IMG/VR virus record: IMGVR_UViG_2721755646_000011
DNA: 64,000 nucleotides
DNA from: a virus
Taxonomy: Duplodnaviria > Heunggongvirae > Uroviricota > Caudoviricetes
Direction: 5' to 3' (one strand)
A program made the position numbers. Below are positions 3,001 through 6,000 of this stretch, in pieces (the stretch's first letter is position 1; the number at the start of each line of letters is the position of its first letter).

Positions 3001-6000
3001 CGTTCGCCGGTTGCCCCGACAGGGCCGGTGTCACCACGCTCTCCTTTATCTCCCTTCGGCCCCTGAGGACCCGCGGGCCCCTGTTCCCCCTTTGGCCCGG
3101 GAGGTCCCACCACGGTGGGGATTCGGTTTACGGCCTCTTCCGCCGCTATCCTGCTTTGTTCCGCTGACTGTGCGCTTTCTGCTGACTCCCGGGCTTTTTC
3201 TGTTGCGGTCGTTGCATCCCTGGCTGCATTACCGGCTGCACTTTCTGCCGTCTTTCTTGACAATTCAGCTTCTGCTGCACTTTGTGATGACTCACTGGCT
3301 TTTTGAGCGGCCGCAGAAGCCGAGGACGAGGACGCATCCTCTGACTGCTTTGCAGCGGCTGCACTTTCTGCCGCCTGCCGGGCTGACTCCGATGCATCCC
3401 CTGCTGAAGTGTCAGCATTTGCAGCGCTCTCTTCTGCCTGACTGGCTGATATGCCGGCATTCCTCGCGGACGTCTCTGCTTCTCCGGCATTCTTCTTCGC
3501 CTCCTCTGCGTGACGCGCTGCTTCTTCCACCATCAGTTCAAAACGACGCAGTGCCTCCGGACGGACGTCATCCTCCGACATGGCACCGAGAAAATCATTC
3601 AGCGTCCCCGGTTGAGAATCTTCATACACGGTGATGGTCCCGGCATGTGACGGCGGGAATCCTTCCACCAACAGAATGACGCTGTACTGACCGTACTCAA
3701 CGTCCATGCTGTAACGCCCTGCCTCATCCGGATTTTCAGAGGCCACCGTGTTCACCACCACCGTGCTGCTGGTCCGTCTGGCTTTCAGTTGAATGGTGCA
3801 GTTCTCTACCGGTTTTCCTGTGCCGTCTTTCAGTACACCTGAAATCTTTACTGCCATATTCACCCCACAAAAAAGCCCGCCTGAACCGGCGGGCTGTCAT
3901 AACACTGTGTTACCTGGCTAATCAGAACTTATAACCGACACCCACGATGAAACCGTCAGTGCGCCAGTCGCCACTGCCGGAGCCTTCATAAGCAATATCA
4001 ATGGCCACGGATTCGGTCGGGTTAAACTGCACGCCAGCCCCCCACGCCAGAGACGTGTTGCTGTGGCGACCGTCATCACTTCCGGTCAGCACATCATGCG
4101 TTTTCCCCTTGTTGTCAGTTACGCGGAGATAATCCCCGGAAAAAGTCGACACACGGCTGTAAGCCACGCCCGCCATCGCATACGCACTGAACCATTCATT
4201 CACGCGCACAGAGGGCCCCGCCATCACGCTGAACCAGCGGTTACGAACGGAATCTTCATGCCAGCGGGTATCGCTGTAATGGGTCAGCTGGCGATTCTTG
4301 TCTCCTGCATAGCTGAATGACGTCACCATCCCCAGTGTGTCCGTAAACTCATAACGGTATTTCACGTTAATCCCGTTCAGATCATCGCTGCCGGGAACGT
4401 TCGTCGAGACATGAAGATACCCCGCGCTCAGCGTGGACTGATGTTCAGACGCCCATGCAGGCGCACCGGATACGGCCAGACAAATGGCTGCGGACAAAAT
4501 GGCGGCATAAAGTTTACGCATAATTACCTCTCGCTTTTCTGCAATAAAAAAGGCGTCATTTCTGACGCCCGTTCTGGGTTATAAAATTCAGCTGATACTG
4601 ATACCTGCTGTGGATTTTTTCATCACCACAACCAGCAGATCGCTGATACTGGTTGTTGGTGTCCAGTTATTCGCTCCTGATGAAGATACGGTGAATGTCA
4701 GTGTCAGCGTCCCCTGTCCGGCAGGCATATCTATAACTGAGGAAAATACGCCCTGAGCATCCGTCGTGGACTGATTAAAAATCTCCTGACCATTGCGGGT
4801 CACTCTTAACCGGCAGGTTGAATACCAGTATGACTGTTGGTTATTACTGTTGAAATTCTCATGCTTACCACCGCGGAATAACACTGGCGGTATCATGACC
4901 TGCCGGTCAAATTTCTGATCATCACTGATTCTTACCGTGATGGTGCCACTGGCATAACTGTTCGTGCGGGGGAAAGACTTGCTGACCGTTTTGACAATAT
5001 CGCCTTCAATCTGATTGGCTGACAGTTTCCCCTTAATCTGACAGTTCTCATTAATCGTGACGTTGTTGAGCGTCCCGGAGTTCGCATTCACACTGCCACT
5101 GATATCCGCATTTTTAGCAGTCAGCTTTCCGTCCGGTGTCAGGGAAAATGACGGTGGATTTCCACCGCTGGTAATGGTGGGGGCCGTCAGGCGCTTCAGG
5201 AACACGTCGTTCATGAATATCTGGTTGCCCTGCGCCACAAACATCGGCGTTTCATTCCCGTTTGCCGGGTCAATAAACGCGATACGGTTAGCGGCAACCA
5301 GAAACTGGCTCAGTTTGCCTTCCTCCGTGTCCTCCATGCTGAGGCCAATACCCGCGACATAATATTTGCCGTCTTTGGTCTGCTCAATTTTGACGCCCCA
5401 CATGGCATTCCACTTATCGTTAGCATCCTTCCACTCTTTCGAAAACTGCTCCAGTTTGCTGGCGTTATCCTCCGTCAGGTCGACTTTTTCCAGCAGCTCT
5501 TTACCGAGATGGGATTCGGTTATCAGGCCTTTGAAAAAATCCAGGTAACCTTCGGCATCATCGCTCGCCCGACCGACGGCCTCCACAAATGTCGATTTGC
5601 CGACTGTGTTCACACTGCGAACGTAAAAATAATAATCATGGCCCGGCTTAATATTGATACTGGCGGCTATCCAGTACAGCGCCGTGCCAAGATAGCGGGC
5701 TGTGGTTTCAACCTGCCTGATATCCGCAATCCGTTTTTCCGAGAACCAGAACTCAAACTGTACCGTCGGGTCATAAACCGCAAGATGTGGCGTGGCGGTT
5801 ATCTGAAAATAGCCCGGTGTCAGCTCAATCCGAGACGGCGCTGCCGGTGCGGCAATCCGGAACGATACCGATGCCGGATCGCCCTGCTGTCCCCACGCAT
5901 TTACCGCCCGGACTGTCAGTCTGTAGTTCCCCAGCGCCAGTTGCGTGAAGCGGTATGTGGTTTCCGTCGTCCGGGCCGTGCTGACCAGCCGCTCACTGCC

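Follow-up and report, generated by a model that had tools for sequence, protein, structure and literature searches.

Two tandem lambdoid prophages at ompW of an O157-type Escherichia coli carry divergent J tail-tip alleles whose receptor-binding domains probably both use OmpC

The ompW locus and its two J genes

This analysis concerns a 64,000-nucleotide stretch of viral DNA, IMG/VR record IMGVR_UViG_2721755646_000011 (the window, meaning the whole stretch), and the two alleles of gene J, encoding the tail tip attachment or central fiber protein, that it carries. The window is a piece of an enterohemorrhagic Escherichia coli (EHEC) O157-type chromosome at the ompW locus and holds a tandem pair of lambdoid prophages, with late genes on the minus strand according to the annotations of strains 180-PT54 and FDAARGOS_293. 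Prophage 1 stretches between its tail end, near position 1, and an integrase at about 43105-44235, followed by a remnant of ompW. Prophage 2 comes after it, with effector cargo (espM1, nleG, nleF, nleH1-2, and nleA) at about 45500-58400 and tail genes from 59446 to the window end. All J, lom, and fiber features given below lie on the minus strand. The two J proteins were found to differ strongly in their C-terminal parts, and comparison with characterized alleles makes it very probable that both receptor-binding domains (RBDs) are directed at the porin OmpC and differ in the OmpC alleles that they accept.

Gene J of prophage 1 (J1; 4588-7986) is an intact open reading frame (ORF) that begins with GTG and translates to 1132 amino acids; in 180-PT54 it is the annotated gpJ WP_064234962.1. 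Its Pfam matches follow the order FNIII-A_GpJ (PF24801), Phage-tail_3 (PF13550), Ig_J (PF24421), Ig_J_second (PF24489), Phage_Tail_Tip (PF09327), and Ig_GpJ_C (PF12421). For the J gene of prophage 2 (J2), which is Sp9-like, the window contains the 3' part at 61849-64000, that is, the last 716 codons plus the stop in a 717-codon open frame, and the gene continues past the window end. This partial J2 matches the end of PF13550 and then PF24421, PF24489, PF09327, and PF12421. The resulting Pfam order is that of a lambda-type J protein, with hub domains, two Ig/FNIII domains, a tail-tip fiber segment, and a C-terminal Ig-like RBD. The position of J, as annotated in 180-PT54 and FDAARGOS_293, is also lambda-like: it closes the tail operon, following homologues of L, K, and I and preceding lom and the side-fiber genes. 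Lambda gpJ has the same domain order and Pfam families, its gene likewise stands between I on one side and lom and stf on the other, and J1 equals it in length. A start site 78 nt farther upstream was considered for the J genes of relatives (1158 versus 1132 amino acids) and rejected; the extra length is an internal 28-residue insertion in the shaft.

The spacer between the I homologue and J1 (7987-8232, minus strand) measures 246 nt, compared to about 60 nt in lambda. A strong terminator-like hairpin with a 10-bp stem, 7 G-C pairs, and a following T run is located at 8038-8061, roughly 50 nt before the GTG start of J1. The equivalent spacer of prophage 2, taken from FDAARGOS_293, is 342 nt long and has no alignment to that of prophage 1. 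An Rfam scan of the I-J spacer detected no known RNA family. Two more putative terminator-like hairpins, both pattern matches only from a consensus scan, lie on the minus strand in the gap between J1 and lom (4551-4570) and after lom (3874-3895).

Blockwise divergence of J1 and J2

The alignment comprised J1, J2, lambda J, and the tandem-prophage J of FDAARGOS_293, and domain names were taken from the lambda structure paper (PMC11101478) and from the Pfam matches. A sequence-only reading of the window had proposed that the C-terminal parts of the two J proteins differ substantially next to near-identical fiber modules, and that the two phages probably use different primary receptors. Over the C-terminal span that it named (the last 337 and 350 amino acids of J1 and J2, respectively), 204 of 369 aligned columns were identical. 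This value of 55%, far below the 95% that would have marked the two ends as alike, bears out the divergence, which goes well beyond chance, and its coordinates.

The divergence was blocky and not uniform. The hub part (J1 6175-6663, J2 63511-63999) was 98% identical between the two proteins, and FNIII-1 (J1 5872-6174, J2 63214-63510), which lies outside the span named by the earlier reading, was 58% identical. Identity rose to 94% in FNIII-2 (J1 5542-5871, J2 62884-63213), fell to 30% in the alpha-helical shaft (J1 5347-5541, J2 62605-62883), where J2 has the 28-residue insertion, and was 75% in the central straight fiber (J1 5095-5346, J2 62353-62604). The RBD, counted from after lambda residue 964 (J1 4591-5094, J2 61852-62352), was 62% identical. 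The segments between hub and RBD are referred to here as the trunk (J1 5095-6174, J2 62353-63510). The DNA gave a similar picture: positions 5362-5528 had no alignment to prophage 2 whatsoever, positions 5528-6664 were 87% identical, and the region from lom to the 3' region of J was 78% identical between prophages, compared to 94.7% for the fiber region (2205-3880 versus 59379-61057).

The side tail fiber genes of prophage 1 occupy 2273-3857, with a collagen-repeat fiber at 2544-3857 and a small fiber C-terminal protein at 2273-2542. Those of prophage 2 occupy 59446-61030 (59717-61030 and 59446-59715; annotated in FDAARGOS_293). The prophage 1 fiber matches the Pfam families phage_tail_N, Collagen, and Phage_fiber_C, as expected of a collagen-repeat side tail fiber; the Gly-X-Y repeats are visible, and the annotation of 180-PT54 agrees. 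Between the prophages, the fiber proteins were identical at 420 of 439 positions (95.7%) and the small fiber C-terminal ORFs were 94% identical, so the proposed likeness of the fiber modules was confirmed at the protein level.

Receptor-binding domains and characterized alleles

Natural E. coli prophage gpJ C-termini have been fused to lambda gpJ at residue 964, and two of the resulting chimeras, A8 and 1A2, have been characterized (Brödel et al. 2024, PMC11338833). Neither chimera requires lamB in the recipient cell for DNA delivery, and in MG1655 lacking lamB and ompC their delivery depends on the OmpC variant supplied from a plasmid. With K-12 OmpC, delivery was 95% for A8 and 2% for 1A2; in a strain with EDL933 OmpC it was approximately 98% for both. 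Of 23 OmpC variants, 21 were accepted by A8, 1A2, or both (PMC11338833). A preprint also reports that EDL933 OmpC, not LamB, is recognized by both A8 and 1A2 (bioRxiv 10.1101/2025.02.28.640725).

The J1 RBD (residues 965-1132; 4591-5094) was 100% identical to chain 9wca_J of PDB entries 9WCA/9WCB, named 'A8 gpJ 713', at every residue after lambda position 964, and it is therefore designated A8 type. Entry 9WCB places the A8 gpJ fragment together with three outer membrane porin C chains, an OmpC trimer, in one entry. The machine-read text of the A8 supplement matched J1 at 163 of 175 positions. The J2 RBD (last 167 amino acids; 61852-62352) matched the C-terminus of GpJ 1A2, as given in the machine-read PDF supplement of PMC11338833, at 164 of 174 positions, with 6 positions unreadable and 4 mismatches situated beside read errors, and is designated 1A2 type. 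A frameshift-tolerant alignment was used for this comparison, as frameshifts introduced by the reading make plain tblastn identities misleading. Neither RBD resembled the LamB-binding type. The RBD of LamB-binding lambda gpJ was only 46% identical to that of J1 and 45% identical to that of J2, with insertions and deletions in loop segments, and the characterized alleles that match J1 and J2 use OmpC.

Since the trunk of J1 is lambda-type up to approximately residue 973, J1 can be regarded as a natural counterpart of the engineered A8 fusion. It differs from that fusion in being a natural prophage gene and in having a hub (residues 1 to approximately 600) of O157-prophage type instead of the lambda hub. 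J2 matches gpJ 1A2 in the RBD, but its native shaft is longer than that of the lambda trunk on which 1A2 was assayed.

Taken together, we are confident that J1 and J2 are mosaic alleles of the lambda tail tip whose RBDs are both OmpC-directed and differ in the OmpC alleles accepted. From the literature, the A8-type tip accepts K-12 and O157 OmpC, and the 1A2-type tip accepts O157 OmpC and many others but not that of K-12. Sequence identities, mosaic boundaries, and allele matches were computed here; OmpC dependence and allele range come from the literature. The earlier proposal is thus upheld in part. The receptor-binding ends are different alleles, 62% identical, that are expected to affect host recognition, and the likeness of the neighboring fibers stood as well; the comparison with known J alleles did not support separate receptor proteins, as it placed both RBDs with OmpC-using alleles that differ in OmpC-variant range. 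Binding of J1 and J2 to different outer membrane proteins, such as a LamB-like protein for one of them and OmpC or FhuA for the other, would be in keeping with the low RBD identity, which is lowest in loop-like segments, and with the finding that the C-terminus decides the receptor in lambda (PMC11101478). Because OmpC dependence has been measured for the alleles that the two RBDs match, and because the two are equally distant from the LamB-binding RBD of lambda, we consider this very unlikely.

Other RBD types were encountered among related loci. Phages 4C10, PhiR47_2, and 21 carry a further type with 82-83% identity to A8, 67% to 1A2, and 48-49% to lambda. A fourth type of 173 residues, with less than 70% identity to A8, 1A2, and lambda, is common beside lom genes of the prophage 1 type (29 IMG/VR loci). 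The literature yielded no usable receptor information for the nearest sequenced phages (Turner, PhiR29_2, 2H10, PhiR55_1, and phage 21).

Integrity of J2 and function of prophage 2

Prophage 2 is the counterpart of Sp9 of strain Sakai: the Lom proteins are identical, as are the last approximately 240 residues of J, although the FNIII-1 region of Sakai Sp9 J differs from that of J2. These relatives bear on whether the J difference has any present function, which it would lack if prophage 2 were defective in J or in other morphogenesis genes and only prophage 1 made a working tip. The Sp9-like J of FDAARGOS_293 is annotated as frameshifted, with a 1-nt deletion (GTGGCC-TACACC versus GTGGCCGTACACC) near codon 370, approximately 212 nt past the position of the window end. 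The J of VT1-Sakai, which has the same RBD as J2, is annotated as truncated by mutation, and Sakai Sp9 itself has defective portal and head genes and was never transferred to K-12 (Asadulghani et al. 2009, PMC2669165). On the other hand, all 716 J2 codons in the window are open, and the J of Sakai Sp9 (ECs_1806) is intact at 1158 amino acids and was scored functional for host specificity; Sp9 DNA is also packaged, with help from other prophages (PMC2669165). An RBD of 1A2 type would likewise predict no transfer to K-12. We infer that the absence of Sp9 transfer to K-12 fits a 1A2-type tip unable to use K-12 OmpC, although the other defects of Sp9 could also explain it. Loss of function in prophage 2 is an unlikely, but still sizable, alternative to two working OmpC-directed tips.

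Several points weigh against two OmpC-directed tips of differing range. J2 is incomplete in the window, and the deletion seen in FDAARGOS_293 may mean that the gene is dead in this strain. The receptor data were obtained with lambda chimeras bearing these C-termini and not with particles of prophage 1 or 2, and dependence on OmpC leaves room for an additional receptor. Moreover, 10 of the 174 1A2 positions could not be confirmed from the machine-read PDF, and the boundaries of the J domains are approximate.

Origin and spread of the J alleles

The hub of J1 (residues 1 to approximately 600) was 99% identical to the tandem J of FDAARGOS_293 and 69-79% identical to lambda, with 69% identity to lambda over residues 442-604. 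Approximately residues 601-973 were lambda-type, with identities to lambda J of 99% in FNIII-1, 95% in FNIII-2, 89% in the shaft, and 99% in the central fiber. The RBD was again 99% identical to the tandem J of FDAARGOS_293. Judged from these block identities, J1 is a three-part mosaic of an O157-prophage-type hub, a lambda-type trunk, and an A8-type RBD. By the same comparison, J2 is of Sp9 type, with a longer shaft and a 1A2-type RBD.

Synonymous divergence (dS) between J1 and J2 was 0.09 in the hub and at least 1.15 or saturated in FNIII-1, the shaft, the central fiber, and the RBD. The ratio of nonsynonymous to synonymous divergence (dN/dS) was 0.1-0.3 in all blocks, including 0.22 in the RBD. 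With dS this high in these four blocks compared to 0.09 in the hub, and with dN/dS low, the divergent blocks are best explained as old alleles imported by recombination and not as products of recent local positive selection. Both RBD types are also widespread. Among complete E. coli genomes, RBD DNA at 99% identity or higher was found in 1075 records for the J1 type and 993 for the J2 type, typically at two places per genome and at up to 11-13. The entire J1 C-terminus, lambda-type shaft plus A8 RBD, was 97-99% identical in phages Turner, PhiR29_2, 2H10, and PhiR30_1, and the last 350 amino acids of J2 were 100% identical to the J of VT1-Sakai (Sp15) and of PPompW prophages from other serotypes. 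Such spread is typical of the mosaic pool shared by EHEC lambdoid prophages; the RBD alleles are of known, widespread types, and the block map is nothing new in kind.

A driver of divergence other than the receptor would be trunk-module compatibility in assembly or escape from J-sensing defenses of the HepS type. FNIII-1 and the alpha-helical shaft, which are divergent without contacting the receptor, speak for such a driver, as does the finding that HepS, a prophage-encoded nuclease, is triggered by lambda J residues 902-933 (PMC13043305). However, both J proteins conserve the HepS trigger segment with its F924, dN/dS stays far below 1 throughout the J blocks, and the RBD alleles have been measured to differ in the OmpC variants that they accept (PMC11338833). 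We regard this explanation as highly improbable compared to imported alleles of differing OmpC range.

The 32-residue trigger of HepS, an abortive-infection nuclease of Gifsy-1, corresponds to residues 902-933 of J1 (approximately 5188-5283 of the window) and to approximately 62446-62541 in J2. The J1 segment is identical to that of lambda, including the key residue F924, and J2 retains F924. Both J tips are predicted to act as HepS triggers and not as silent variants.

Lom proteins

The lom genes of prophage 1 (3922-4521) and prophage 2 (61182-61781) each encode 199 amino acids of the Ail/Lom family of 8-stranded outer-membrane barrels. Pfam PF06316 covers residues 1-199 in both (E = 5e-121 for Lom1 and 2e-122 for Lom2), and besides this full-length profile both fit the family layout of an N-terminal signal peptide and an eight-stranded barrel ending in an aromatic residue. 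Strands and loops were placed by alignment to OmpX and to lambda Lom chains (PDB 9wso_C) and with an AlphaFold2 model of Lom1. The model, built from a shallow alignment, was of low confidence (pLDDT 59.8), with seven clear strands and the first one not resolved, and was used for strand layout only.

Lom1 and Lom2 were identical at 167 of 199 positions (84%). The sequence-only reading had placed the differences mainly in surface loops, which holds for one cluster. Loop 2 (residues 73-81; 4279-4305 in prophage 1 and 61539-61565 in prophage 2) has 7 differences in a charged cluster in its ascending limb, GDKNRQLTH versus NAEDEQKTR. As a general statement it did not hold: the signal peptide accounts for 13 of the 32 differences, and extracellular segments contain 10 of the 19 differences in the mature protein versus 76 of its 174 residues, an enrichment that was not significant (p = 0.29). 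Loops 1, 3, and 4 have one difference each, leaving the large loop 3 nearly invariant, and the strands and first periplasmic turn have 9, mostly conservative.

Lambda Lom resembles Lom1 and Lom2 in its full-length Ail/Lom match and its position between J and stf. Overall identity is 46% to Lom1 and 42% to Lom2. Loops 1-3 show no sequence relationship, the C-terminal strands and loop 4 are nearly identical, and lambda Lom and Lom1 agree at all of the final 23 residues (AYEGSGSGDWRTDGFIVGVGYKF), which span strand 7, loop 4, and strand 8. PDB entry 9WSO contains lambda Lom and a maltoporin with the same sequence as that in the gpJ-LamB complex 8XCJ, and overexpressed lambda Lom protects against lambda-vir and not T7 (preprint, bioRxiv 10.1101/2025.02.28.640651). 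Because of this joint deposit and the protection from lambda-vir, lambda Lom perhaps masks the phage's own receptor. By analogy, Lom1 and Lom2 might be porin-directed receptor-masking proteins for OmpC-using phages, counterparts of lambda Lom, which we consider a quite unlikely reading. If true, the loop-2 hot spot would adapt Lom1 and Lom2 either to OmpC variants or to their cognate type of RBD, and lom would be linked with the J RBD in an 'attack and exclude' module.

Covariation of Lom with the RBD was examined in 15 GenBank phages and approximately 150 IMG/VR loci. Lom of the Lom1 type adjoined A8 RBDs (30 loci), A8-like RBDs (7), 1A2 RBDs (23), and the fourth type with less than 70% identity (29). 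The NAEDE/NAKDE variant of loop 2 was present only beside 1A2-type RBDs; 1A2 RBDs also occurred beside the GDKNR variant, as in Stx2a_1447 and PhiR55_1. Phages 21, 4C10, and PhiR47_2 have no lom between J and the side-fiber gene. Because the lom start lies 66 nt from the end of J, the pattern is consistent with linkage that recombination occasionally breaks, and the 15 phages and approximately 150 loci gave no evidence of obligate functional coupling between Lom and RBD.

Genomic setting of the prophage pair

Positions 1-14000 of the window were 100% identical to strain 180-PT54, and positions 40000-64000 (a 24,001-base query) were 100% identical, with one gap, to O157 strain FDAARGOS_293. No single complete genome of the collection was seen to match both window ends. 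The tail region of prophage 1 (1-14000) was found at 100% identity only in 180-PT54, in which ompW is intact and no Sp9-like prophage is present at that site. FDAARGOS_293 is the match for the tandem junction and prophage 2; in that strain the J of prophage 1 has another trunk and the same RBD. These split matches indicate recent recombination of tail regions among O157 and O111 prophages. In Sakai, Sp9 is a single prophage at ompW; the window has a further lambdoid prophage, prophage 1, in tandem there. The designation of prophage 1 as 'Sp10-like' was rejected; Sp10 in Sakai integrates at the site held by Rac in K-12.

Prophage 1 also contains known small RNAs and a tRNA. AgvB, the anti-GcvB small RNA, lies at 27463-27524 (plus strand), followed by STnc100 at 27526-27718 (minus), the tRNA at 27804-27863 (minus), the sok antitoxin RNA, which adjoins hokD, at 32775-32949 (minus), and DicF at 39680-39731 (plus).

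Proposed mechanism and significance

Recombination among lambdoid prophages would assemble mosaic J alleles in which a common hub is joined to an anciently diverged FNIII-1, shaft, central fiber, and C-terminal Ig-like RBD. The lambda J homotrimer keeps the tail tip sealed and is opened by receptor binding (PMC11101478), and we infer by analogy that J1 and J2 form a homotrimeric seal of the same kind. The A8-type and 1A2-type RBDs would dock on the trimeric porin OmpC, not LamB, with RBD loops entering the extracellular vestibule of the porin as in the lambda-LamB complex. If the analogy with lambda-LamB extends further (PMC11101478), the RBD would then open, the central fiber twist, the shaft flip, and the FNIII domains release the tail tip.

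With one receptor protein and a different range of OmpC alleles, the strains open to each phage would differ. Phages with A8 tips can reach hosts with K-12-like OmpC, and those with 1A2 tips cannot. A strongly divergent J C-terminus alone does not mean a new receptor, given that these RBDs are 62% identical and both very probably OmpC-using. Beyond annotation the significance is small, as the pair reflects ordinary prophage mosaicism and not a receptor switch; what it may offer is a finer prediction of the spread of effector-carrying prophages, such as prophage 2 with nleA, nleH, nleF, and espM1.

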